Shown in pieces: positions 4,900 to 62,014 of a stretch of DNA of 64,000 nt (the stretch's first letter is position 1; every line of letters starts with the position of its first letter). A program made the translations under genes and the position numbers. Where the stretch lies: the sequence record OQ420740.1. The stretch is one strand, 5' to 3'. This DNA is from Escherichia phage B9-1. Below the pieces are notes generated by a model. That model searched no databases and was not told the origin of the DNA. It saw only the letters and a program-made list of their open reading frames with translations.

Positions 4900-5070
4900 T
4901 TACTTAAAGTCTTTGTCACCTATTACGATTGCACGAATCCACTCATTGTGATGCTCAATGGATGTAAGGTGTAACATAATGCAGTGATTGTCATTACCAA
5001 ACACGGCTCGATAAGCCTTAGCAGCACCATGATATAACTTCCACATCACGTAATGGTATCTTCGTTTCAT
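4900..5070 (-). CDS. Small hypothetical protein (56 aa)
   Basis: ORF below track cutoff, MKRRYHYVMWKLYHGAAKAYRAVFGNDNHCIMLHLTSIEHHNEWIRAIVIGDKDFK; its ATG overlaps stop of upstream gene (ATGA). Confidence 0.3.
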   Translation of the reverse strand: MKRRYHYVMWKLYHGAAKAYRAVFGNDNHCIMLHLTSIEHHNEWIRAIVIGDKDFK

Positions 5071-5546
5071 GGTTCTTTCTCCGGTTCAGGATCTGGATAA
5101 TCTTCAATAATAAAGGGCCATCCGTTACGCTTAGCGTCAGACTTATACTCAATCTCCTTCATTGCAAACTCTAACTGATTCTTAGCCGGAATGCAAGCTG
5201 GAGAATCATCAACCCAGATGTCTGGGTAGATATCAAACTGCGCCAGATAAGCGGCCTTCTGAACGCCTTCAGTATAAAACACTCCAACATCTAACTCCTT
5301 GCGCCAGTATTCGATGTCCACGTTGTCTTGAGTGATGAATCGGAAAGTCACAAGATAGACTGTCCACCCTTCCTTCTTCAGGTCCTTAATAAGGCGGGAG
5401 AAGATGAAAGGGCTCGCATTAAACGTTCCATCAAAGTCGATAGCAATGATGTGGGTGCCGTGACGAGTCTCATATGGATTGCTCGTGGTGAGATTGCTGT
5501 AGTTGAAAGGTACTTCTTCTCCGCAGTAGCTGTAGTCCATATTCAC
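5067..5546 (-). CDS. HAD-superfamily phosphatase-like protein (possible nucleotidase)
   Basis: Track ORF 159 aa; HAD motif I IIAIDFDGTF and distal acidic motif WVDDSP. Confidence 0.6.
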   Translation of the reverse strand: MNMDYSYCGEEVPFNYSNLTTSNPYETRHGTHIIAIDFDGTFNASPFIFSRLIKDLKKEGWTVYLVTFRFITQDNVDIEYWRKELDVGVFYTEGVQKAAYLAQFDIYPDIWVDDSPACIPAKNQLEFAMKEIEYKSDAKRNGWPFIIEDYPDPEPEKEP

Positions 5547-47365: not shown

Positions 47366-47384
47366 TTTCTTAACTGAATTATCA

Positions 47385-47410
47385 AGGGGCTTAAAGGCCC
47401 CTTTCTTTTT
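47385..47410 (+). terminator. Intrinsic terminator
   Basis: AGGGG-cttaaagg-CCCCT then TTCTTTTT. Confidence 0.7.
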
Positions 47411-47412
47411 GT

Positions 47413-49819
47413 CTGCTCTTCTCCTACCATAAACGGCCCTACCTGGCAAGTGGAATAATTGACTAGCCATCAATCCCACACACTGTACAAATATACATAT
47501 AAAATAACTATTGCATAATCTTTCACTGTGTGGTAGCAGGGCCATTTTTACCCGTTTTCTCTCCCAAAAGTGCACGTAATGCCGCTATTGCACAAATTTT
47601 AACCTGATGCACATCTCCAATATCTTGTCAACAACTAAAAATCTTTATAAGTCATACACTTACACAACATAGAAAGCGTGTCCTACGCGAAAAATCGAGT
47701 ATAACTATAGCCGCCAGATCTCAGAATTCACGTACGAACACCATTCTATAGTCTGCAAAGTATTTATTCCAACCACAGAATAACGGAATAGTCAATACCT
47801 GCATAAAATAATTATTCGTGTAAACTGCATAACATAAATCAGCTCAGGTGTCAACATTTTTCGTAAACAGTCCGAAATTATCACGATGAGTTATCATAAA
47901 CAGAGAAATCTTTAGTCGTCTAATGTTTACTGTACATTACTATACTGACTGGAATCATTAGATGACTAAGAGAAAGATAAGAAATAATTAATAATGTAAT
48001 TGTTTTACCTGTAACAATAAGGCAACTATGCAAACGAATGGCATGGCGCGACGGAGTCGCGACATAATATAAAAGCAGTAACAATCACCCCCGTGATAGT
48101 TTTTCTGCAATCTATTACTCAGATCATAGTTGCCTTGTATTTAGTTAATCATGACATAACAAGCAAGGCAACTATAGATCTTCTAATAGTTGCCCTGCTT
48201 TTATATTATGTCATAGATTGTTAGCTTGTTAATTGTTTTCATGCAAACGAATGGCATGGCTTATCATCTCTGTGTAAACTGTTCAGGCGTAAACAGTCTA
48301 TGCGTAAACAGTGAGATATGGAATAGTAACAGCCGTTATTGTGTCATATTGTGTGACATTGTGTCCGGTGTCTGGTGTCCAGTGTGTCAGACAAGTTTTT
48401 CTCCTCTTTGTCAAGTGCTGCATGAAAAATTTACAAACTGGTATGGTAGCATTTTTGCGGCCCTGTTTACATTCAGGAATGTATGTATAATCCTTGTTGT
48501 GTGGGCGTTTAGACGTCTGGACGGTCAGAAGTCTGCAGGTCAATATCTAATCTATTGGTTGCTAACTATATCCCACACAAATAGTAAGAAATATAATTGT
48601 TATATGCGTAAACAGTAACCCATGTTATCAATCCCTGCATGTATCGCCAGTGGTGCGCATAATGGGTATTATGTTAAATTGCCCGTAATGATAACCATTC
48701 TCACAATGATAGGTATTCTCATTCACTCCCACAAGATAGATTGCAAATGTTGTGCCACTGTGTGAACGGCCTGGCCTATTAATTTGCCTCACTGCCTCGA
48801 TATTTGAGAATTATTATAAAAATGAGAAGTATTCCCATTCCGTCCGCCTGGCAGCACTCCTGTAGGACAGGCACAAAATCGGGGTATAACTGGACCTGTT
48901 CAGATATTTCTGGCTGACTCTTCAGGCCTGTGTGGGAAAAGCCAACCTCTCCGGCGGCGGGGAGGGGTCAATTAAAAAATTTACGTGGTGTATGAAGCGC
49001 TCTTCAGGTAAGGCAGGTATTATGGGATGAAACCCTCTTCAGATGATGATATTTGTGGGTGTGATATTTGCTGGAAAGCCAGATATGACGGGACTCCCGG
49101 CAGGGGTGGGGTAGTACAGACAGGGAAAATGTGGGAATGTGATGGAGTAAATTGATCAGGTAGGTAGGATATGGAATATGTTACAAGTATGTTAAATATG
49201 GAGGTAGGATATTTGTAAGATTTGTGTGTAAAATCAAATACTTAAGTGGTGTTGTGGTATTTTCTATAAATAATTCAAGTTTAATAGGTGATATTTGTCT
49301 CCATCCACTTTGTGTGGTAAACAGATTCTAATTGAATTGGTTTACAAGTGTATATAAAGTATACAAATTAAAGATATAAGAAACCCCCCTCCCCCTTCGG
49401 CTACCATTCACCTTTTCCTCTGACTGGTACTTAAACACTTATTCAGACTCTTCAGGTTATCACCCATATACTATATGGCAGTGACTGGTGTCCTCCGGCC
49501 CCTCTTTCGTCACCCGTCCGCTTCGCCATGCTAATGCCATAGCCAAATGTTCGGTTGTTCACCCTGTTCACTCAGGTGTATCTCCATACCCCTTCAAACC
49601 GAAGAGAACAGAAAACCCGAATTACTCGGTAAAAGAAAAGAGAAGAACTTAATTTTATCAAGATAGGCAAGAATGTCAAGGGATGACTGCTCACTAAACA
49701 AGCAAACAGTCATGTGTGGTGGGTAAGTAACTGTGTTGGTAGGAAATTTAGTTGAAAGATGTTATAGGTGCCTCCAGAACCTTAGCTGGGCAGCTAAACC
49801 TGCAAAGCAGACTTGTGTG
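47413..49819. other. 2.4-kb non-coding, repeat-dense region between convergent gene blocks
   Basis: No convincing ORF; CGTAAACAGT x4, ATGCAAACGAATGGCATGGC x2, AAGGCAACTAT x4 in alternating orientation, palindrome GTCGCGAC, CTCTTCAGG x4. Confidence 0.7.
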
Positions 49820-50662: not shown

Positions 50663-50974
50663 CTATACCCATGAAGGCTTGTCTAGGTTTGAGTAACTAA
50701 AAGGTGTCAAAAGGTGACTGTCAAAATCTTTCAAACTCTCCAGATCTTTTTCCTCGTCTTGACACCATCTGTGCCTACATTTATTGTTGTAGTGCATGGA
50801 GTGCATAGCGTTCTGCAACTTAACAGGTACAAGGGATTCAGGAGTAGATAGAATTGTTGGGTATGCCAGGACTATCTCAAACAATGGAAACACATCGAAA
50901 CTGAAGTCTATTTCTGCTGAGGTTGCTGGCATATAGGAGTATTTAGCTGTCGTTGTAGACATAATCCACCTCAC
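50663..50974 (-). CDS. Hypothetical protein (103 aa)
   Basis: Track ORF; overlaps upstream stop. Confidence 0.55.
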   Translation of the reverse strand: MRWIMSTTTAKYSYMPATSAEIDFSFDVFPLFEIVLAYPTILSTPESLVPVKLQNAMHSMHYNNKCRHRWCQDEEKDLESLKDFDSHLLTPFSYSNLDKPSWV

Positions 50975-52444: not shown

Positions 52445-52732
52445 TCATAGCGTCTCTAAAATTTCATACCCTTCGGGTCGGAAAACAAGCCACTCAGGTG
52501 CTCCATTTGGTCGATACGCTTTATACAGAACAACCTGATCTCGGCACATACACATTGCTACATAGTTTTCATCCACACCTGCAGCCTGCATTGCATCTTC
52601 TTCTCCGGCAACCGCTTTGCTTACAACTTCCTTGGTAGGCAGGTGGGCGATCAGTTCGTCACCATCGTTAATTCCAAAATGGCTGAGTTCTCCATTGGTG
52701 TCTTTAATCTTGATCTTAATCAAATCTTTCAT
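52445..52732 (-). CDS. Small protein, loosely related to MKVK family (95 aa)
   Basis: Track ORF; MQAAGVDE motif, C-terminal YEILETL. Confidence 0.55.
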   Translation of the reverse strand: MKDLIKIKIKDTNGELSHFGINDGDELIAHLPTKEVVSKAVAGEEDAMQAAGVDENYVAMCMCRDQVVLYKAYRPNGAPEWLVFRPEGYEILETL

Positions 52733-53061
52733 TAGTCTTCCCCCAAGTTCAAAGGCCCTAAGATCTCATATGCCAGATTAGAGGTTACCAGGGGATCTTC
52801 TGCATCTTTAGTATTATACCACCCGTGAATAACCAGAGTCCCACTTTGCTTCATGTCTAACTGGAACTGTTCTGCCGTTTCCTCATCCATCTCCAAGATC
52901 TCCATGAGGTATTTGATGTTAGGAAGGTGTGCAGCTGTTACAGTCCCCTCTACTAGGCCTTCAGGCCAACCTACATCCGGATGACAAGTAGGGACCAGAG
53001 AGGTCAGCTTGATAGTGTATGCTTTTTCTGCACGAGCCTTCAGTAACGGATCAATTTTCAT
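52732..53061 (-). CDS. Hypothetical protein (109 aa)
   Basis: Track ORF; overlapping start/stop. Confidence 0.55.
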   Translation of the reverse strand: MKIDPLLKARAEKAYTIKLTSLVPTCHPDVGWPEGLVEGTVTAAHLPNIKYLMEILEMDEETAEQFQLDMKQSGTLVIHGWYNTKDAEDPLVTSNLAYEILGPLNLGED

Positions 53062-53411
53062 TATTCTTCCTCCTCTTCGGTGCCTGCTTCCAGTAGTAAG
53101 TTAAGAACATCTTCAGCAGAAGGTTCGTAGAACTCTTGGCCTTCGTTGTCGATGATGCTATAGTCATCACCACGAATAATCAGAGGATCGTCATCAAAAC
53201 CTTCAAGACCTTTAACAACGACAACACGGTCGATTGCCATCATTGTAAGAACTTTATCGACATCTTCCTCTGCTACACCATACTGCAGCAGAATGTCTTT
53301 GGTAGGAGGAACAGCATCAACCACAACACCGTTACCAAAACCTTCCGGGAGTTTAGCTAAAATATCTTCCGGAACCGCATTCATATCAAAACCTGTGATC
53401 TCTACTTTCAT
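53061..53411 (-). CDS. Small acidic protein, paralogue of 53412..53672 (116 aa)
   Basis: Track ORF; VAEEDVDKVLTMMAIDRVVVVKGLEG; C-terminal EEEEE. Confidence 0.55.
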   Translation of the reverse strand: MKVEITGFDMNAVPEDILAKLPEGFGNGVVVDAVPPTKDILLQYGVAEEDVDKVLTMMAIDRVVVVKGLEGFDDDPLIIRGDDYSIIDNEGQEFYEPSAEDVLNLLLEAGTEEEEE

Positions 53412-53672
53412 TTACAGCACCTCTTCGTCAACTACTTCATAAAAATGGCTCGGGATTGCAATAGCGTTCTCACCTTCACCTACAAACACAGTCCCGTCAA
53501 GGATCAACATCATAAGAATGTCTGTAATATCCTCCTCCGGAACGTTGCCAAAACCTTTAATCAACTTATATGTCGGGACATTCGCCTCTAGGATGTCGCC
53601 ATCTTTAGAACGGAAATCAACACCTTCCTGAATCTCTGCCGTTTCAAGGTTTTTCAATTTAATCTTCATCAA
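53412..53672 (-). CDS. Small acidic protein, paralogue of 53061..53411 (86 aa)
   Basis: Track ORF; VPEEDITDILMMLILDGTVFVGEG; C-terminal YEVVDEEVL. Confidence 0.55.
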   Translation of the reverse strand: MMKIKLKNLETAEIQEGVDFRSKDGDILEANVPTYKLIKGFGNVPEEDITDILMMLILDGTVFVGEGENAIAIPSHFYEVVDEEVL

Positions 53673-53749
53673 TCAGTCTCCTAATCTTGTTAAGATGAAG
53701 GTATTATTGCACACAGGGTTGGTGTTGTCAACACCTGTGTGGCATAAAA

Positions 53750-54145
53750 TTACTGAAACAGTGCAGATAAATTACCTTCTGGTGGGAACTTATCTGCCAG
53801 GAATGGGGTTAGAACAGTGGCCTTCTGAATATCAGGAGTCCACTCATTGTTCAGAACATCCCAGTAGTACGCAATGTTACTGTGTGGGTGCCGCATTACG
53901 AACTTTTTCCCTTCGTAGTCAGTTGAAACCTCTACAGAAGAAATAACAACAGAATCTTCAAGGGTTTCTTCATAGAAAGATCCACCCTCAAATTTCCAAC
54001 GAGATGCAAGAGCTCCTGCCTTAAACGCTGCAGATAACGGATTGTCTGCAAGAACATACATTTCTTGCACTCTATCACTGCGATCTTTGCTTCTTACGTT
54101 GTATACAGTATCTGAGCTATACTCAACACGGTATAGACTTACCAT
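53750..54145 (-). CDS. Hypothetical protein, paralogue of 55952..56350 (131 aa)
   Basis: Track ORF; shared HP.S...YW.....WTP motif. Confidence 0.55.
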   Translation of the reverse strand: MVSLYRVEYSSDTVYNVRSKDRSDRVQEMYVLADNPLSAAFKAGALASRWKFEGGSFYEETLEDSVVISSVEVSTDYEGKKFVMRHPHSNIAYYWDVLNNEWTPDIQKATVLTPFLADKFPPEGNLSALFQ

Positions 54146-54477
54146 TACCGAACCTCCTCAATAACTTCCACATCTGAACCCACCACAAATGCAAAAGGAC
54201 AGGTTTCATGAAAGATATCCGGATCTCCACCGAGCTTGCTAACTATCTCTCCGCCACTAATAAACACAAGCTCACCAATATTCATCAGATTGCTAAAATA
54301 GTAGCCATAATGATTGAAGAATGCAGCTGGGTCAGGTAGACTGGTGGCCTCAAGCTCTACATTGCTTGAGATCACTTTCTTATCATACCCTCGCGCCTTT
54401 TGAGATGCAAGATCTGCAGAGTCTTCAGGAGACCGGAGATGCACAGGAATTGTTTCACCAATAAAGCGTACTTTCAT
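54145..54477 (-). CDS. Small protein, probable MKVK family member (110 aa)
   Basis: Track ORF; MKVRFIG start, C-terminal DVEVIEEVR. Confidence 0.55.
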   Translation of the reverse strand: MKVRFIGETIPVHLRSPEDSADLASQKARGYDKKVISSNVELEATSLPDPAAFFNHYGYYFSNLMNIGELVFISGGEIVSKLGGDPDIFHETCPFAFVVGSDVEVIEEVR

Positions 54478-54481
54478 ATTC

Positions 54482-54745
54482 TCACCCTACAATCATGGCT
54501 TCAAAAGGTGTCATAAACGAATAAACAGCATCATCATCTGCTTCAGGGAATGCCCCCAAAGACTTCATGTCTGAGCCTTTGACAAATACAAGGTTTTGAT
54601 CAAAAGCTTCTTGGGGATCAATCCGATACATATCTTGTAGGATACCGCTTACCTCCTCATCAAGAGGCGAGTATGCTGTGCACGTTTTTCCAATCAAGCT
54701 TTGAGAATCAGGGTATCCACCTGAAGTTTTAAAATAAACAATCAT
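54482..54745 (-). CDS. Small protein, MKVK family member (87 aa)
   Basis: Track ORF; GYPDSQSLIGKTCTA and LVFVKGSDMKSLGA resemble 60256..60489. Confidence 0.55.
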   Translation of the reverse strand: MIVYFKTSGGYPDSQSLIGKTCTAYSPLDEEVSGILQDMYRIDPQEAFDQNLVFVKGSDMKSLGAFPEADDDAVYSFMTPFEAMIVG

Positions 54746-54837
54746 ATAGTATCACCTCTGGTAAGAGATGGGGATTCCTTTCCCACAAATAATTATAAAC
54801 ATTTCTTGTCGAGGAAAGTATTCCAACCCAAGCAGGA

Positions 54838-55107
54838 TTACTCTTCTACAACCTCATACACATCCGGAGTTACAATCAACTCCTCTCCATTACCCGGAGC
54901 AACAAACACTACCAAACCTTCCGGTGTGTGCTTTTTAGCCATCTCGATGACATCTTCTCGCAGAGCTGGCTCCATCAGATCAAAACCTTCACCCAGGGCA
55001 TCACGAACCACCTTCATGTAGTCAACTGGTTGTGCTTCAACGATCATGCCTTCAACCAGTCCACAGTTTTTGTCTGCCAGCTCAGTTTGGAATAATTTAA
55101 TTTTCAT
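54838..55107 (-). CDS. Small acidic protein, MKVK-like (89 aa)
   Basis: Track ORF; MKIKLF start, C-terminal YEVVEE. Confidence 0.55.
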   Translation of the reverse strand: MKIKLFQTELADKNCGLVEGMIVEAQPVDYMKVVRDALGEGFDLMEPALREDVIEMAKKHTPEGLVVFVAPGNGEELIVTPDVYEVVEE

Positions 55108-55250
55108 TTAGAGGTCTCCTCAATTATTTGATATTAATAGCCGTAACCTAACACATTAACTACAACTGCGATTGCAAACATAATTTCAAAGCATGCAATC
55201 TCTACATTTGGGATTAATTTCTTAATCGTGCCCATTGTAGCACCTCAATC

Positions 55251-55562
55251 TCAAAAGTCAATCTTTACTTTGCCTTTTCCCTTACCTTTCTTTCCACCAC
55301 ACTTAGCCAACTGGCGTGCTGCAACATCTACCATACGGTCAGTTGCCTCGTAAGCATCACTACCTTTAGCTTTGGCGATAACTTCTTTTCCAGAAGTGTC
55401 AAAAATGAAAGCCATAACTTCCTGGTGATCATTTTCAACTTTTACACTCACACGTGCATAGTTGGCAGAGGGGTGCAAACGCTCCAGCTTGGACATTTTG
55501 TTGGAAATGAAAGACACCATACCTTCAGTGATCTCTACGTTGCCAGTGATTTCAATTTGCAT
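55251..55562 (-). CDS. hpf: Ribosome hibernation-promoting factor / RaiA-like protein
   Basis: Track ORF 103 aa; MQIEITGNVEITEGM...KLERL...VKVEN...AKAKGSDAYEATDRMVDVAARQLAK closely matches the bacterial HPF/YfiA sequence pattern; lysine-rich tail. Confidence 0.75.
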   Translation of the reverse strand: MQIEITGNVEITEGMVSFISNKMSKLERLHPSANYARVSVKVENDHQEVMAFIFDTSGKEVIAKAKGSDAYEATDRMVDVAARQLAKCGGKKGKGKGKVKIDF

Positions 55563-55643
55563 AATGTGTTCCTTTTAAAGAAGAGGGACCAACCCCTCTT
55601 TGAAAACAATGATACTAAATCTGAAGCGTTGTGTCAACAGTTT

Positions 55644-55934
55644 TTACAACTTGTTGTCGATAGTTTTTAAAATATCTACTGCAAGATCTGCCATTTTACG
55701 AACATACTCTGCAAACTCAACAGGATCCTTGATCAATGAGTTCACAGGGTCATACCCTAAAGCGTTTAAAATGGCTACAGCATCCACGACCTTCTCATCA
55801 TTTGCGAAGATCTCACCGTCAAACTTGTAGGTCCATTTTGAGTCAATCTTGACATCGCAGGATTGGTCCATGCTTATTACACCATCTTTTTTAAACGATC
55901 CGGTGTTATCAGCGTCCAAAACTAAATCCATCAT
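55644..55934 (-). CDS. Hypothetical protein (96 aa)
   Basis: Track ORF. Confidence 0.55.
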   Translation of the reverse strand: MMDLVLDADNTGSFKKDGVISMDQSCDVKIDSKWTYKFDGEIFANDEKVVDAVAILNALGYDPVNSLIKDPVEFAEYVRKMADLAVDILKTIDNKL

Positions 55935-55951
55935 GTAAGCACCCCACTATT

Positions 55952-56350
55952 TCAGCTTATCTTTTCTTCAACAACCCCATAGCTTGGGGCAGAGTCAAGA
56001 GCTTTCTGGTTTAAAAGTGGTGTAGCAGAATCTGCAAACGGTGTCCAGGTTTTTGTTCTGGCATTCCAGTAATGCTTCACTCTGGAATCTGGATGCACTA
56101 TAACAAAAACTTTTTCACTTGTCAACACATTAATTTCTTCCACACCCTTACTGACAATTTCTCCGTCATAGCCTCCAGTCTGGTATCCTTCGTACCAGGT
56201 TCTTGCATAGGCATAGCCAGCCTGCCAGCATGCAGCCTCCTCCGAGGTGGAGACTACGTAGAAGTCTTTCTCAAATTCGGGGATACGACCTTGCTTTACG
56301 CTCCAAGCTCCGCGAATTTTCATTGTAACTTTGAACAGTTTATTTTTCAC
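55952..56350 (-). CDS. Hypothetical protein, paralogue of 53750..54145 (132 aa)
   Basis: Track ORF; HPDSRVKHYWNARTKTWTP motif. Confidence 0.55.
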   Translation of the reverse strand: MKNKLFKVTMKIRGAWSVKQGRIPEFEKDFYVVSTSEEAACWQAGYAYARTWYEGYQTGGYDGEIVSKGVEEINVLTSEKVFVIVHPDSRVKHYWNARTKTWTPFADSATPLLNQKALDSAPSYGVVEEKIS

Positions 56351-56362
56351 AACAGTTCCCCA

Positions 56363-56617
56363 TCACAGCTCTAAAATATCTGCATCTGACCCTGCCCCAA
56401 AGGCATAATACGAGTCCTCTCCGAAATAATATTCCGGGGCACCAGCCGCGATCAGGTCTGATCCCAAGATGAACACCACATTGTGGCCTACATGGCTGTG
56501 ATTTTGCCGCACAGGATCGTCCCACGGCAACCCTTCGAAGTATACAGCAGGTACTACCTTTCCTTTCAGGAAGGATTGTCCCAAGTAGACGTTAGAGTCA
56601 AGAATTTTAACCTTCAT
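56363..56617 (-). CDS. Small protein, MKVK family member (84 aa)
   Basis: Track ORF; MKVKILDSNVYLGQ...GSDLIAAGA. Confidence 0.55.
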   Translation of the reverse strand: MKVKILDSNVYLGQSFLKGKVVPAVYFEGLPWDDPVRQNHSHVGHNVVFILGSDLIAAGAPEYYFGEDSYYAFGAGSDADILEL

Positions 56618-56831
56618 GATCGTCCTCCACTATCTCCACATCCTCTCCTAGGGCAAAGTTGTAGGTCCACTGACTGTCAAAGCATTCCTGGGATGCACCA
56701 GCGGCAATAAGATCTGCACCTTTTATTTTTAAAAGGTCAGGATAATCTTCGTTAGGGATAGCGGTAAACACTTTCCCCACTAAGGGCTCCTGACCAATAT
56801 AGAAGCTTGAATCTAAAACTTTAACTTTCAT
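56607..56831 (-). CDS. Small protein, MKVK family member (74 aa)
   Basis: Track ORF; MKVKVLDSSFYIGQ...GADLIAAGA...VEIVEDD. Confidence 0.55.
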   Translation of the reverse strand: MKVKVLDSSFYIGQEPLVGKVFTAIPNEDYPDLLKIKGADLIAAGASQECFDSQWTYNFALGEDVEIVEDDHEG

Positions 56832-57115
56832 CAGCGGTCTCCATCGGGCGGTTGTGGAACGTAAACACTGTTACGAATCTCGTCAGCAGTGTAGTAACAA
56901 GTTTTACCCTCTCTGTCCCTGGCAGCAATGTATTCAGCTATACCAATAAGTGCCATAGCCTTGGTTGCGTATCTCTTAAGCTCGTTAGCTCCCCAGCAAA
57001 ATCTCTGCCAAAACGGTATGAAACCGAATAGGTACACTTTCTGTTTCACTATCCAATAAGTTCCTTTACAGATCACTTTAAACTCTGCAGCACTATTGCT
57101 AACACCATTGCTCAT
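56831..57115 (-). CDS. Hypothetical protein (94 aa)
   Basis: Track ORF. Confidence 0.55.
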   Translation of the reverse strand: MSNGVSNSAAEFKVICKGTYWIVKQKVYLFGFIPFWQRFCWGANELKRYATKAMALIGIAEYIAARDREGKTCYYTADEIRNSVYVPQPPDGDR

Positions 57116-57127
57116 TATCTTCTCCTT

Positions 57128-57412
57128 TTATTTTTCTGGGTTTGGCAGATATTGCACATTAGCAGGAGGAACACCGGATAGCTCCCAAACAACCATAGTG
57201 CTGTACCCTGGCACACTTCTAACATTTAAAAGAGTAGGAGCACCAACACATTTAAACTTCCTTTTCCCAAATCCGTTCTCCATCATAACCCAGTATCCGG
57301 TATCCTGATCACCGGGAATTTGTGTTCCATCATCGTCCACCCAGCGGACGGTCCATTTCGACACAGCAACAGCCTGGTATTTAAACTTTTTAAACCACTC
57401 GAACAGTTTCAT
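57128..57412 (-). CDS. Hypothetical protein (94 aa)
   Basis: Track ORF. Confidence 0.55.
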   Translation of the reverse strand: MKLFEWFKKFKYQAVAVSKWTVRWVDDDGTQIPGDQDTGYWVMMENGFGKRKFKCVGAPTLLNVRSVPGYSTMVVWELSGVPPANVQYLPNPEK

Positions 57413-57507
57413 AATTCAGCCTCGCATAGCCATGATAACTATAAACAGACAAAGAATGAATCCGAATGCCACGCCACCCATAAACGTTAATATTGATGCG
57501 ACCATAA

Positions 57508-57693
57508 TCAATCAGCCTCGTTTGGCAGCTCTTCCATTTTGACATGCCGGAAAGTGTTGCCGTAATAGTTGATCCATGACATCAGCTCACTTTCTTGCTC
57601 TTCCTCTGGGATGGACTCTCGAACGCTGACAAGTTTTAAGAAAACCCAATCACAATCCACCCCCATCCTACCAGACAGACAATAGTGCTTCAT
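57508..57693 (-). CDS. Hypothetical protein (61 aa)
   Basis: Track ORF. Confidence 0.45.
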   Translation of the reverse strand: MKHYCLSGRMGVDCDWVFLKLVSVRESIPEEEQESELMSWINYYGNTFRHVKMEELPNEAD

Positions 57694-57711
57694 AAAACCC
57701 TCCCGCCTGGT

Positions 57712-57906
57712 TTAGAATATTGCTTCTTCCATTGCACCTGAGAGCAACAAAGAGGTAATCTGGCTAACATTCATCTCAGACTCCACTTCCTCTCCTTTGA
57801 AAGGTTCGCGGCAGAATAGGACTGTTTCAGGATTTTTACTTCGAACAATATAATACAAATCATTCAAAGTGTTGTAGTAATAAGTGTTAAAATGTAAGTT
57901 TTTCAT
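57712..57906 (-). CDS. Hypothetical protein (64 aa)
   Basis: Track ORF; overlaps upstream stop. Confidence 0.45.
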   Translation of the reverse strand: MKNLHFNTYYYNTLNDLYYIVRSKNPETVLFCREPFKGEEVESEMNVSQITSLLLSGAMEEAIF

Positions 57907-58190
57907 TTTCTAGTCCCCTTTTTAGATTTTTGTGCAGAAACGCTTTCTGCAATACGAGACAGGCGTTCTTCTGAAGCTTTACCTACCCCAGGTTTCTTGA
58001 GCGGGTTATCTTTATGACCGCAATCCAATTGGATGCTAGATACATCCCCAACCTTGTAAGTCAATTCTAGCAAAAGGTTGTCGTCCTTGTCAAATGTTTT
58101 TACGATAAATTTTTTATCGTCCTCCTTAACTTCATATCTAGTACCTGCAGTATACAGCATGGTGCCATCAGCGTAGGATATCCAGATCAT
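57903..58190 (-). CDS. Hypothetical protein (95 aa)
   Basis: Track ORF. Confidence 0.55.
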   Translation of the reverse strand: MIWISYADGTMLYTAGTRYEVKEDDKKFIVKTFDKDDNLLLELTYKVGDVSSIQLDCGHKDNPLKKPGVGKASEERLSRIAESVSAQKSKKGTRK

Positions 58191-58534
58191 TGCACCTCCT
58201 TCTGCTGCAACAGCATCAACTCTTTGTTGGAAATCTTTACTGCTGTCTTTATTGTCCCATCTTCACGGAACCACGACCAGAATTCTACAGTATCACCACT
58301 ATCAAGCAAGGCATGACCATGGTAAAAATCTTTGTCCTTAGACAGTTTCTCATCTATATCTGCATCGACACATTCGTGATCCATAGCATTCTGCCTGAAT
58401 GCATCGGTTATACCAATACACGCCTTGCTCTCAAGACTGGTATACCCAATATCTTTTAATTCAGTTTCCCAAGTCCAGTATCCTACAAAAGCTACAACAG
58501 CCACCCACATTAATATCGATTTAATCTTTGACAT
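58187..58534 (-). CDS. Putative membrane-anchored/secreted protein (115 aa)
   Basis: Track ORF; N-terminal hydrophobic ILMWVAVVAFVGYWTW. Confidence 0.55.
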   Translation of the reverse strand: MSKIKSILMWVAVVAFVGYWTWETELKDIGYTSLESKACIGITDAFRQNAMDHECVDADIDEKLSKDKDFYHGHALLDSGDTVEFWSWFREDGTIKTAVKISNKELMLLQQKEVQ

Positions 58535-58594
58535 TCTCTCTACCTCTTTCTTAGTTTATTTAATCATGGCACATCCTTTGTGCCATAATGCACA

Positions 58595-59056
58595 TTACTT
58601 AAACAACAGTTCAAAATAGTGCAAAATTAACAGAAGTTGAATTACGCCTAGCACAACGGCGAGTATGTTGATCTTAGAATCAAAAAACTTCTTAACTTTT
58701 ACCCTAAAAGGCTCCTTAATGTCCTTTACGATCCTATTTATAGATGATTTCATATCCCTGATTACCATCCTAAACATTAGGGACGGATCTTCCTTCTCTG
58801 TAACGGAATCGAAAACATACTCTCTTCGGTCATAAGGACCTCCAGATCTGCGTATTAACCTCTCCACAGATACCTCGTACGACACACCTGTAACGTAATC
58901 ATCTATGACAAGTAGTGACGGATCTTTATCGTCCAAAGGTATCAAAGTTATCTTTCCAGATTTTGTTAAAATTTCTCCTTTTTCAAGCAGTGTGTACCAA
59001 TGCTCTCTACCAAGGTTGTTGAGGCACGTTTTTACATATTTAACAAACATCGTCAC
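58595..59056 (-). CDS. Hypothetical protein with C-terminal hydrophobic anchor (153 aa)
   Basis: Track ORF; C-terminus ILAVVLGVIQLLLILHYFELLFK. Confidence 0.55.
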   Translation of the reverse strand: MTMFVKYVKTCLNNLGREHWYTLLEKGEILTKSGKITLIPLDDKDPSLLVIDDYVTGVSYEVSVERLIRRSGGPYDRREYVFDSVTEKEDPSLMFRMVIRDMKSSINRIVKDIKEPFRVKVKKFFDSKINILAVVLGVIQLLLILHYFELLFK

Positions 59057-59256
59057 CCCTCATCGCACGTCTGATATAGCCATTCTATGAAATCTTGATA
59101 CCACTCTCCCTCTGAGCGCTCCGTAGGCCAATAATCTTCCCCCTCTCTTGCATTAAAATCTGAGTATTCAACTTTCCACTCCTTTACCAGCTCGTGGAGA
59201 AGGTTTTCAGCCTGTTCTAAGGATTTATTTTTTGTCATTACTGTCCCCTTTTTCAA
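59053..59256 (-). CDS. Hypothetical protein (67 aa)
   Basis: Track ORF. Confidence 0.5.
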   Translation of the reverse strand: MKKGTVMTKNKSLEQAENLLHELVKEWKVEYSDFNAREGEDYWPTERSEGEWYQDFIEWLYQTCDEG

Positions 59257-59458
59257 GATAATTATACATCAGTGCCGCACCACCCAAAATGGCTACCAGC
59301 AGTAATACCCCAGAGAGCATTTCAATAAACATGGCTTGAAACATTAGAAGGCCCCCTCTAATTTCACGCACCATTTTAAATACATATTCTTTTCCCATAA
59401 AGGTGCCCGGCTAAGATCTGCGTAGAACGCAATCTCTTTAAGAACAGTATAAACAGTT

Positions 59459-59695
59459 TTAGGTGCGGTATCCATCCCTACTCTCCTTTTTCTCCTTACG
59501 GGTATTCTTGTGGTAATCAACTAGGCACATTATTACGATGAAGATAACAACAGGCCAAAAGGGCGCAGCAGTGATGATGGTGATAAAATCATCAAACTTC
59601 ACCCTTCGTGTAGACACGATGCATATACCTGCCAAGATTACTGCTGTTATAACAGCTACTACCAGGTAACCTATCAGCACAGCATCTATACTCAT
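59459..59695 (-). CDS. Putative membrane protein (78 aa)
   Basis: Track ORF; two hydrophobic helices. Confidence 0.5.
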   Translation of the reverse strand: MSIDAVLIGYLVVAVITAVILAGICIVSTRRVKFDDFITIITAAPFWPVVIFIVIMCLVDYHKNTRKEKKESRDGYRT

Positions 59696-59713
59696 TGGCT
59701 CCTCCTTTGTAGG

Positions 59714-60259
59714 TTAAATTGTACACTGCAGGTGGTTGCCGAGGGTGTCAAGAAAATTATCCCGTTCTTTCTCAGAGTTTTCACGGGTGTAGCTGAAAAA
59801 CATATCTAGAATAACCTTATTGATATATTCCAGCTCCTCTGTGTTCAGGTACTTAGCAGGATCTACAATGACATCCCAAATATCATACAAACCGCACTCA
59901 TGATACCCCCAACGCCACTCAATTGTCAAACTGAGCGGCAAATCTTTACCATCACAAACAACCTTCCATCTACAGATGTTGGTATCTGGACGTACCTGTG
60001 CACGGTATACCTGTACAAAATCCAATTTGAATTTGAGGTACTCGTCATACAATTTAAGTACAAAACTCTCGATTTGTGGAGACACTTTTGCAGCAAACTG
60101 TGCGTATTTGTACTTGCACTGGATGATCTTTCTGCGTTTTGCAGTTAAATTTTTTGCAGCCAGTTGTTCTTCAGTGTATCTCCACCTACGATCAACAAAC
60201 GCAACAGGGTCTTTGTCCCCATAGAGGTCTTCCCAGTTAATCAGAAGCATACCTGTCAC
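59714..60259 (-). CDS. Hypothetical protein (181 aa)
   Basis: Track ORF. Confidence 0.6.
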   Translation of the reverse strand: MTGMLLINWEDLYGDKDPVAFVDRRWRYTEEQLAAKNLTAKRRKIIQCKYKYAQFAAKVSPQIESFVLKLYDEYLKFKLDFVQVYRAQVRPDTNICRWKVVCDGKDLPLSLTIEWRWGYHECGLYDIWDVIVDPAKYLNTEELEYINKVILDMFFSYTRENSEKERDNFLDTLGNHLQCTI

Positions 60260-60489
60260 TCCTCCACAACTTCAAGGCCTTTGCCGCCTCGTTCTGGTAG
60301 ATTACTTAAAGACAGGTAATACGTATAGTCAGGAGAGATCCTGCCAGACTCTGCACCTGCAGCTAGTAAATCTTTTCCCTTAACCATGACAACATTATCG
60401 TTTGCAGATAGCCGTTTTGCTTCCACAATTTTACCAACGCAGTCAACCAAGGAAGGGTACCCTAAATCTGTAAGAAATTTAACTTTCAT
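60256..60489 (-). CDS. Small protein, MKVK family member (77 aa)
   Basis: Track ORF; MKVKFLTDLGYPSLVDCVGKIVEA...KGKDLLAAGA...LEVVEE. Confidence 0.55.
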   Translation of the reverse strand: MKVKFLTDLGYPSLVDCVGKIVEAKRLSANDNVVMVKGKDLLAAGAESGRISPDYTYYLSLSNLPERGGKGLEVVEE

Positions 60490-61199: not shown

Positions 61200-61484
61200 C
61201 TACCAGGTCACTGTCAAGTAGGCAACTGTGTTATTTTTCTCCGGGGAGATGCCAACAACATCCACCTGCAGACCTCCTGCCCTCAAATCCCCAACGATGT
61301 GTGGGAAGTAGTCTGAGAGGTGTGATGGAAGATTTATCGAAAATCCGCATCCCAGAAAGCCTGCTAACGCCTTATTTTGTATCTCCCCTACAATCGCATC
61401 ATAAATGGAGTTAAGCTCGTCAGGGAGAGTTACAGGACGTTTTAGCGCTAACTGGTGCAACTTGTCCTTAGCACTCATTTTCAT
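61200..61484 (-). CDS. Hypothetical protein (~94 aa)
   Basis: Track ORF 61200..61553; internal ATG at 61484 gives an ATGA overlap with the upstream stop and avoids a 73-nt overlap. Confidence 0.5.
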   Translation of the reverse strand: MKMSAKDKLHQLALKRPVTLPDELNSIYDAIVGEIQNKALAGFLGCGFSINLPSHLSDYFPHIVGDLRAGGLQVDVVGISPEKNNTVAYLTVTW

Positions 61485-62014
61485 TTCAAGTCTGCCTCCG
61501 GAGGTGCCAACCACATAAATGGTGGTAGGTCTAAACGGTTCTTCTTGTCCCACACAAAATATGCATATGCTTGCCCGTCAGTTCTGCCATTCGATTGGAA
61601 TGATGGACGCTTAGATATTGTGATCACAGTGGTAGGGGCATTATCAAGCCACCATTCAAATCTGGCCTTGCTTTCCAGAAAATTAAGACGCAAAAGCATA
61701 ATAACTACGTCGGCATCTTTCAACGCCTTGTCCACAAACTCACGAGCCAGGCTGTACGGCGGGTTGGTGATAATACAGTCAACATGGTTGTATTCTGTAT
61801 TCAGATAGTCAACACCTTCTTGGATTTCTCCCCATGCAGATCCTAACGGCATACGGGAGTAGAACACACCTGAGGCGCTATTCCTGCAAGGCTCCAAATA
61901 GGTCCAATCTTCTGGGAACGGGATGAGGTCATACAACCCTTCTGCACACCACTCTGGTGTCACATATTCATCATAGGCGTTACGTTGTTCGTCAGGTTTT
62001 CTAGCACAAGTCAT
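61481..62014 (-). CDS. Small phage Dam-like DNA N6-adenine methyltransferase
   Basis: Track ORF 177 aa; catalytic motif DCIITNPPYS; size fits the short phage Dam family. Confidence 0.7.
   Translation of the reverse strand: MTCARKPDEQRNAYDEYVTPEWCAEGLYDLIPFPEDWTYLEPCRNSASGVFYSRMPLGSAWGEIQEGVDYLNTEYNHVDCIITNPPYSLAREFVDKALKDADVVIMLLRLNFLESKARFEWWLDNAPTTVITISKRPSFQSNGRTDGQAYAYFVWDKKNRLDLPPFMWLAPPEADLK

Follow-up and report, generated by a model that had tools for sequence, protein, structure and literature searches.

The window analysed here is a 64,000-nucleotide stretch of Escherichia phage B9-1 (record OQ420740.1), and this report concerns twelve small genes on its minus strand within positions 52445–60489. 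This region is 99.2% identical to Escherichia phage vB_EcoM-ECP26, which places it in Vequintavirus, the rV5-like myophages of E. coli; nearly all of the 121 phage records that match the region are likewise Vequintavirus. Phages of this genus are often put forward for phage therapy and biocontrol, and the function of over half of their genes is unknown. The region is part of a leftward block of small genes labelled hypothetical, and in the matching records the only exceptions within the block are a ribosome hibernation factor homologue and some scattered, inconsistent labels. The block forms the distal end of a long transcription unit that starts with replication and nucleotide-metabolism genes and continues through genes for PhoH, a ClpP-like protease and a methyltransferase. 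The open reading frames (ORFs) named in a preliminary description of this DNA are all present, on the minus strand. Twelve genes fall into three small families, A, B and C (Table 1), and one three-gene cassette made up of members of A and C is required on a uropathogenic strain, but not on K-12, in a sister phage. Genes are designated below by their lower window coordinate.

All-against-all BLASTP comparison covered the 34 proteins of the block, and profile searches covered the 541 ORFs of the window. The resulting statistics support all three families. Family A, the phrog_5009 lineage, has five genes (60256, 56607, 56363, 54482 and 54145). Besides the BLASTP matches given in Table 1, 56363 matched 60256 at E = 1e-3, and the matches from 54482 and 54145 to the other family A genes were weaker than the best of these (E = 5e-4 to 7e-3). 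The phrog_5009 profile matched 60256, 56607 and 56363 over their full length (E = 1e-31 to 1e-38) and 54482 weakly (E = 1e-4), so that the proposed paralogy of these four genes is confirmed. The same profile did not match 54145. A profile of 35 family A members from which 54145 had been left out retrieved it from the 541 ORFs at E = 1.2e-6, with nothing else below E = 0.03, and family A therefore has five members including 54145.

Similarity within family A spans the whole length of the proteins. The shared pattern comprises an MKVK.L strand followed by GK..A, G.DL..(A)GA, Y.F and E..E within a single domain of ∼70 residues, and conservation across 69 members is high at K20 (77%), A24 (87%), G38 (91%), L41 (91%), G45 (97%), Y57 (88%) and F59 (83%). 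Two details of the motifs in the preliminary description need correction: 54482 starts with MIVYFK rather than MKVK, and 56363 has LGSDLIAAGA where a KG form had been given. The family members differ in an insert between strands 2 and 3 of the predicted fold (below), which amounts to 14 residues in 56363, ∼20 in 54482 and ∼45 in 54145; 54482 can be aligned through its GK..A, KGSD..LGA and Y.F segments.

Family A is small but extends beyond this genus. A search of 1.84 billion representative proteins returned 45 clusters at E < 1e-3, and homologues are found also in mEp013-type temperate phages and in E. coli prophages; there the gene is one of about 10 small uncharacterized genes that separate the Q antiterminator from the holin. 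The wider family includes two- and three-domain single-chain fusions (P0052 and P0043). The extra regions of the longer relatives P0043, P0055, P0050 and P0058 contained no Pfam domain.

Family B consists of 54838, 53412, 53061, 52732 and 52445. Pairwise BLASTP matches between these proteins were borderline (E = 0.03–0.27). In leave-one-out searches with a hidden Markov model, however, each of the five members, when omitted, ranked first among the 541 ORFs (E = 4e-5 to 0.014), and the runner-up scored E = 0.3 or worse. Since the termini might be alike for reasons other than descent, the searches were repeated on cores trimmed of the N-terminal strand and the acidic tail, and the omitted member was again the top hit in five of five (E = 1e-4 to 0.08). 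Given recovery both with and without the termini, family B is, on sequence statistics, a real second family. The preliminary description had assembled a group from a shared start and acidic tail; four of its members (54838, 53412, 53061 and 52445) do belong together, with 52732 to be added, whereas the fifth, 54145, is a family A protein. A scan of the remainder of the window and of the ECP26 genome found no further member of A or B. The start of 53412 is likely to be the ATG at 53669 rather than the TTG at 53672. A BLASTP match between this gene (53412–53672) and the N6-adenine methyltransferase encoded at 61481–62014 (E = 0.002, 31% identity over 49 residues) is probably due to chance or composition.

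Family C has two members, 55952 and 53750, whose paralogy had been noted beforehand and is borne out by BLASTP (E = 2e-9) and by full-length matches of both to phrog_7379. This family has 31 invariant columns, including HP.S....YW......WTP. The 55952 protein is listed here from its GTG codon, and a 123-residue form is annotated in related phages. An apparent match of family C to designed Kelch repeat proteins (SAKe6, E = 8e-8) was rejected as a repeat-summation artefact, since no single stretch passes alone. All homologues found for B and for C came from Vequintavirus.

All three families are already represented in PHROGs as clusters annotated "unknown function": family A is split into phrog_5009, 13920 and 13661, family B into 11868, 12359, 12155, 12457 and 12794, and family C corresponds to phrog_7379. 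The window proteins match these nine clusters at E = 1e-31 to 1e-74, but PHROGs records neither the fold, the paralogy nor the cassette arrangement. The rV5 genome paper makes no mention of families A, B or C.

Table 1. Features of the region, with the orthologues of the twelve genes in phage Bas54 and their transposon-insertion results on strain CFE311. log2FC, log2 fold change, CFE311 relative to K-12; the range −0.3 to +1.0 applies jointly to bas54_0146–0149, 0158, 0159 and 0166; n.s., not significant.
Feature	Coordinates	Strand	Evidence	Bas54 orthologue	CFE311 log2FC (adjusted p)
Family A, 77 aa, single copy	60256–60489	−	phrog_5009 E 2.5e-36; BLASTP to 56607 E 1e-7; dN/dS 0.10	bas54_0166	−0.3 to +1.0 (1, n.s.)
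Family A, 74 aa, cassette 1 gene 1	56607–56831	−	BLASTP, phrog_5009	bas54_0159	−0.3 to +1.0 (1, n.s.)
Family A, 84 aa, cassette 1 gene 2	56363–56617	−	BLASTP to 56607 E 5e-14; phrog_5009 E 1e-31	bas54_0158	−0.3 to +1.0 (1, n.s.)
Family C, 132 aa from GTG, cassette 1 gene 3	55952–56350	−	phrog_7379 E 2e-73 (2.1e-73)	bas54_0157	−2.14, ∼4-fold fall (0)
Ribosome hibernation factor homologue (HPF/RaiA)	55251–55562	−	Pfam Ribosomal_S30AE		
Sigma-70-like promoter match	55234–55261	−	TTGACT, 16-nt spacer, TACAAT; 10/12 with extended −10 TG; consensus match only		
Family B, 89 aa, single copy immediately before cassette 2	54838–55107	−	leave-one-out E 2.7e-4, top of 541; dN/dS 0.03	bas54_0153	−2.78 (1, n.s.)
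Family A, 87 aa, cassette 2 gene 1	54482–54745	−	phrog_5009 E 1.2e-4	bas54_0152	−7.16 (0)
Family A, 110 aa, cassette 2 gene 2	54145–54477	−	E 1.2e-6, family A profile built without it	bas54_0151	−6.17 (0)
Family C, 131 aa, cassette 2 gene 3	53750–54145	−	phrog_7379 E 4.5e-65	bas54_0150	−6.77 (0); on K-12, 25/25 TA sites hit, non-essential
Sigma-70-like promoter match	53703–53731	−	TTGACA, 17-nt spacer, AATAAT; 11/12 with TG; consensus match only		
Family B, 85 aa from ATG, first of four-gene tandem array	53412–53669	−	leave-one-out hidden Markov model	bas54_0146–0149 (array)	−0.3 to +1.0 (1, n.s.)
Family B, 116 aa, acidic C-terminal extension	53061–53411	−	leave-one-out E 0.014; core-only E 1.3e-4	bas54_0146–0149 (array)	−0.3 to +1.0 (1, n.s.)
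Family B, 109 aa, N-terminal extension	52732–53061	−	leave-one-out E 1.8e-4; core-only E 0.005	bas54_0146–0149 (array)	−0.3 to +1.0 (1, n.s.)
Family B, 95 aa, last of tandem array	52445–52732	−	leave-one-out E 3.8e-5; dN/dS 0.10	bas54_0146–0149 (array)	−0.3 to +1.0 (1, n.s.)
bas54_0140 orthologue	50663–50962	−	92% identity	bas54_0140	

The order of the genes is itself patterned. Read in the direction of transcription, A (60256), which sits upstream of a gene for a 174-residue "putative glycosidase", is followed after 13 other genes by A (56607), A (56363) and C (55952), then by three other genes that include the hibernation factor homologue, and finally by B (54838), A (54482), A (54145), C (53750) and the four B genes 53412, 53061, 52732 and 52445. 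The A-A-C cassette thus occurs twice, four of the B genes form one array, and two genes stand alone. Permutation of the gene order gave P ∼ 2e-4 for the occurrence of two A-A-C triplets by chance, so that the three-gene cassette has been duplicated; a run of four B genes has P ∼ 6e-3 under random gene order. The earlier proposal that a tiny domain has been repeatedly duplicated and has diverged is thus upheld, with ten predicted barrels in two families. An unrelated phage contig carrying a SU10-type capsid gene (L013, 3990–4775) also has family A genes in tandem (71 and 107 residues), followed by a small HTH_3 gene. The two cassettes, this distant tandem pair and the single-chain fusions together suggest that the predicted barrels work in pairs.

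The transposon phenotype comes from Bas54 (Escherichia phage MaxBurger), for which saturated transposon-insertion sequencing is available (HIDEN-SEQ preprint, 2025; bioRxiv 10.1101/2025.11.20.689424). The Bas54 proteins bas54_0146–0153, 0157–0159 and 0166 share 92–99% identity with their twelve window counterparts. Insertions are tolerated on K-12 in every one of these orthologues, of which nine are scored non-essential and 0151, 0152 and 0153 intermediate. On the uropathogenic strain CFE311, mean reads for 0150, 0151 and 0152 were 0.0, against normal counts on K-12 (log2FC −6.2 to −7.2; Table 1). These three genes are the orthologues of cassette 2, 54482-54145-53750. A role in host interaction, as the preliminary description had supposed, is supported by these data from the sister phage: one cassette is required on a uropathogenic strain and dispensable on K-12. 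The text of the preprint follows up bas54_0063 and bas54_0140 only and does not mention 0150–0152. In its Extended Data Table 8, sheet S6 (K-12 versus CFE303) has the same command line and the same values as sheet S7 (CFE311), and only one clinical strain is therefore documented. The CRISPRi-ART paper holds no genome-wide data for Vequintavirus EdH4.

AlphaFold models of families A and B are five-stranded, antiparallel, SH3-like small barrels. In the model of the family A protein 56607 (mean predicted local distance difference test score, pLDDT, 91.7) the strands comprise residues 2–5, 21–23, 33–37, 56–61 and 65–69, and a short helix (38–43) bears the DLIAAGA motif. The model of the family B protein 53412 (pLDDT 87.3) has strands at residues 2–6, 27–31, 62–64, 71–73 and 78–81, with two helices (35–40 and 46–58) inserted between strands 2 and 3, in a position equivalent to the inserts of 56363, 54482 and 54145. 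About two dozen chains are common to the lists of the best 60 structural matches of the A and B models, including 9eyc_A, 2vkn_A, 2dmo_A, 7ud6_A, 2cre_A, 7k9b_A, 2akl_A, 3fc3_A, 4tse_B and 7ouf_D. Profile-profile comparison of A with B using hhalign aligned only the first 28–33 columns, from the MK[VI]K strand to G..v.A (P = 1e-3 to 2e-3, probability 14–21%). Though weak, this match is better than those of 22 controls in which unrelated small proteins of the block were compared (P = 0.08–0.74), and an attempt to bridge A to B through profiles of the insert-bearing family A members failed (P = 0.025–0.56). The resemblance of A and B is at the level of fold only; all ten proteins are predicted barrels.

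The closest known counterparts of this predicted fold are SH3-like small barrels such as the KOW domains of Spt5 and NusG, PsaE, the retroviral integrase C-terminal domain and eukaryotic SH3 domains. The window barrels differ from eukaryotic-type SH3 domains in having no Pfam hit, and their identity to SH3 chains is 4–25%. Scans of all family members against Pfam, NCBIfam and PADLOC returned only sub-threshold noise, and sequence profiles of the PDB gave no match for A or B. A Foldseek search of predicted viral structures matched only uncharacterized small proteins. These BFVD entries, from T4-like and other enterobacterial phages, are similar in length and 14–25% identical to the window proteins; they include small proteins of RB49 (Q76ZG7), Citrobacter phage Merlin (A0A0K1LND4) and Shigella phage CM1 (A0A5B9MW73), with template modelling scores of 0.71–0.84 (normalized to query length) at probability 1.0.

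The twelve are real accessory genes that arose in an rV5-like phage by repeated duplication of three small orphan families, and we consider it somewhat better than an even chance (roughly 55%) that the barrels bind strain-specific host proteins. The products of families A and B are acidic, 74–116 residues long and predicted to form barrels, some with inserts between strands 2 and 3. On this reading, the working unit would be a pair of barrels, to which the family C protein would add a third partner. The barrels would bind stoichiometrically and without catalysis, and would thereby block or divert host proteins peculiar to certain strains, for example a component of a defence system; each paralogue would be retained for a target of its own. 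Non-enzymatic binding to host proteins is suggested by the small size and acidity of the proteins, the absence of a catalytic signature, the accessory location, the distant tandem pair resembling an acr-aca operon, and the neighbouring bas54_0140 orthologue. The three families are uncharacterized but of a familiar kind, namely accessory expansions of small proteins in large lytic phages.

Phage counter-defence proteins offer the nearest functional comparison. bas54_0140 is reported to be needed to overcome the predicted defence system DS-28 (bioRxiv 10.1101/2025.11.20.689424); its window orthologue belongs to the same leftward block but has no sequence kinship with any of the three families. 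Like bas54_0140 and other small acidic counter-defence proteins, the window genes encode small, acidic orphan proteins and are dispensable on K-12, and one cassette is needed on a clinical strain. Unlike them, the window genes have no matched defence system, and neither bas54_0140 nor any PADLOC model resembles them in sequence. The arrangement of a family A pair followed by a helix-turn-helix gene, which recalls acr-aca operons, was seen on the one distant contig only; the window cassettes contain no such gene. A more specific version of the host-binding reading is tentative and clearly less probable than the general one: the A-A-C cassette may be an undescribed three-protein counter-defence module whose components assemble and neutralize an immunity system of CFE311, with cassette 1 and the B array as diverged copies directed at other systems.

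Several points weigh against host binding of this kind. The CFE311 phenotype comes from the supplementary table of one preprint, for one host, without follow-up by deletion mutants, and by our count nine of the twelve genes have no significant phenotype on either tested host. The proposed pairing of barrels is based on gene order and fusions. Of the two promoter matches in Table 1, one lies upstream of 54838 and cassette 2 and the other between cassette 2 (53750) and the family B array (53412); the phenotype stops exactly at the second, the boundary between 0150 and 0149, and polarity of insertions in 0152 and 0151 onto 0150 is therefore possible. Insertions in 0158 and 0159, however, do not reproduce the phenotype of 0157 downstream of them, which argues against simple polarity. 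The authors of the preprint argue that polar effects are uncommon in their data.

The main rival is general host takeover, in which the barrels would redirect the cell by binding to central host components (RNA polymerase, ribosome or division apparatus, for instance) instead of countering a strain-specific barrier. We rate this as possible but clearly less likely than strain-specific binding. It suits the distal position of the block in a long transcription unit for replication and nucleotide metabolism, the several near-consensus sigma-70 promoter matches, the presence of the hibernation factor homologue and the intermediate, not fully dispensable, status of 0151–0153 on K-12. It suits the phenotype less well, as the strong effect depends on the strain (no reads on CFE311, normal numbers on K-12) and most members carry no fitness cost on K-12.

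The diversifying selection that the preliminary description had put forward is not supported by the substitution data. The ratio of nonsynonymous to synonymous substitution rates (dN/dS, Nei-Gojobori) among nine Vequintavirus genomes was 0.03–0.15 for 11 of the 12 genes, the same as for their neighbours. For the twelfth, 53412, an initial value of 0.72 proved to be an artefact of an ungapped alignment forced onto a 51%-identical allele in phage phiWec189; without this allele dN/dS was 0.12–0.2 where synonymous divergence is substantial, and 0.44 in the closest pairs (five nonsynonymous against three synonymous differences). Low dN/dS among orthologues means that the genes are real and that each paralogue is individually maintained under purifying selection.

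A single fast-evolving family engaged in a sequence-level arms race under diversifying selection is accordingly unlikely. Paralogues within the families are strongly divergent (20–40% identity), as such an arms race would have it, but each is 85–99% conserved across about 120 phage records, the dN/dS of every member among orthologues lies between 0.03 and 0.2, and sequence statistics do not join A and B into the one family first proposed, the link amounting to the weak N-terminal hairpin match described above. Two cases of turnover speak for it. In phiWec189 (L004, 9004–9252) the divergent allele replaces 53412 at that locus only, in a block otherwise syntenic and ∼90% identical, and in other phages the variation of 53412 is concentrated in its helical insert. 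At least two assemblies of wild Vequintavirus (L016 and L017, both 5001–5213) have a single hybrid gene for 70 residues in place of 56607 and 56363 (window 56363–56831), in which the 5′ 140 nucleotides of 56607 are joined to the 3′ 75 nucleotides of 56363 with a crossover in the conserved GCNGCTGGTGC (AAGA) codons; the paralogues therefore recombine.

Less probable still is a role as nucleic acid-binding regulators, with barrels of the KOW, Sm or integrase C-terminal type acting on RNA or DNA. All ten family A and B proteins are acidic (isoelectric points 4.0–5.4), with 11–30 Asp and Glu residues against 5–10 Lys and Arg, and this charge makes binding to nucleic acid unlikely. The Pfam KOW motif of NusG, Spt5 and L24 did not match any A or B protein, nor were there hits to Sm or other nucleic acid-binding families in Pfam.

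The acidic tails have in part a different origin. The last codons of 54145 (VIEEVR), 56607 (VEIVEDD), 53412 (VVDEEVL), 53061 (TEEEEE) and 52732 (LGED) double as the GAGG Shine-Dalgarno site for the gene that abuts downstream, and the tails are thus partly explained by dual coding, the GAG and GAA codons serving as the next ribosome-binding site. Glu-66 and Glu-69 of family A are nevertheless conserved in 70–80% of the 69 members, from many genomic contexts, and the tail is therefore also part of the last strand. That the resemblances are altogether by-products of such signals, the MK[VI]K start reflecting an initiation preference and the tail the next gene's ribosome-binding site, is very improbable: it is contradicted for membership within the families by the top ranking of family B members with both ends removed, by the full-length similarity of family A and by the conserved terminal E..E, and it stands as a partial explanation only of the features that A and B share.

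A ribosome-binding site precedes all 12 genes. At the junctions at 52732, 53061, 53411, 54145 and 56617 the acidic codons of the upstream gene form the next Shine-Dalgarno sequence, and some of the stop codons overlap or adjoin the following start codon, so that translation may be coupled along the arrays.

What merits follow-up is the CFE311 phenotype of a duplicated three-gene cassette. The fitness loss is already in public data, yet undiscussed, and offers a route to a possible new host-range or counter-defence factor. Twelve genes of unknown function now fall into three families, for which a fold is predicted and a gene order recurs, and paralogues of so small a domain could be compared for changes in target specificity. 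Even if the genes prove to be no more than ordinary redundant accessories, some 120 phage genomes would gain a tidier annotation.

Further observations concern the surroundings of the twelve genes. The hibernation factor homologue lies between the two cassettes, and its Bas54 orthologue is non-essential on both tested hosts. Six consecutive small genes of the window (57128–59056, minus strand) are missing from MaxBurger, where the orthologue of 59053 directly adjoins that of 56831, an insertion or deletion of ∼1.9 kb inside the accessory block. Among the matching records are 18 (MG0656xx) named "Campylobacter phage" and marked UNVERIFIED; they are ∼92% identical to the block and classified as Vequintavirus, and their host labels are doubtful.

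Adjoining the leftward block is a stretch of ∼2.3 kb (47370–49600) without an ORF of 60 codons or more. It contains four copies of GCGTAAACAGT, an exact 20-nucleotide direct repeat at 48028 and 48241 and a perfect 18-nucleotide inverted repeat at 48061 and 48195; tRNA and Rfam scans of the stretch gave no match. The equivalent region is described as "non-coding" in the rV5 genome paper and tolerates zero transposon insertions in Bas54, and it is therefore probably essential in cis, perhaps as a replication origin.

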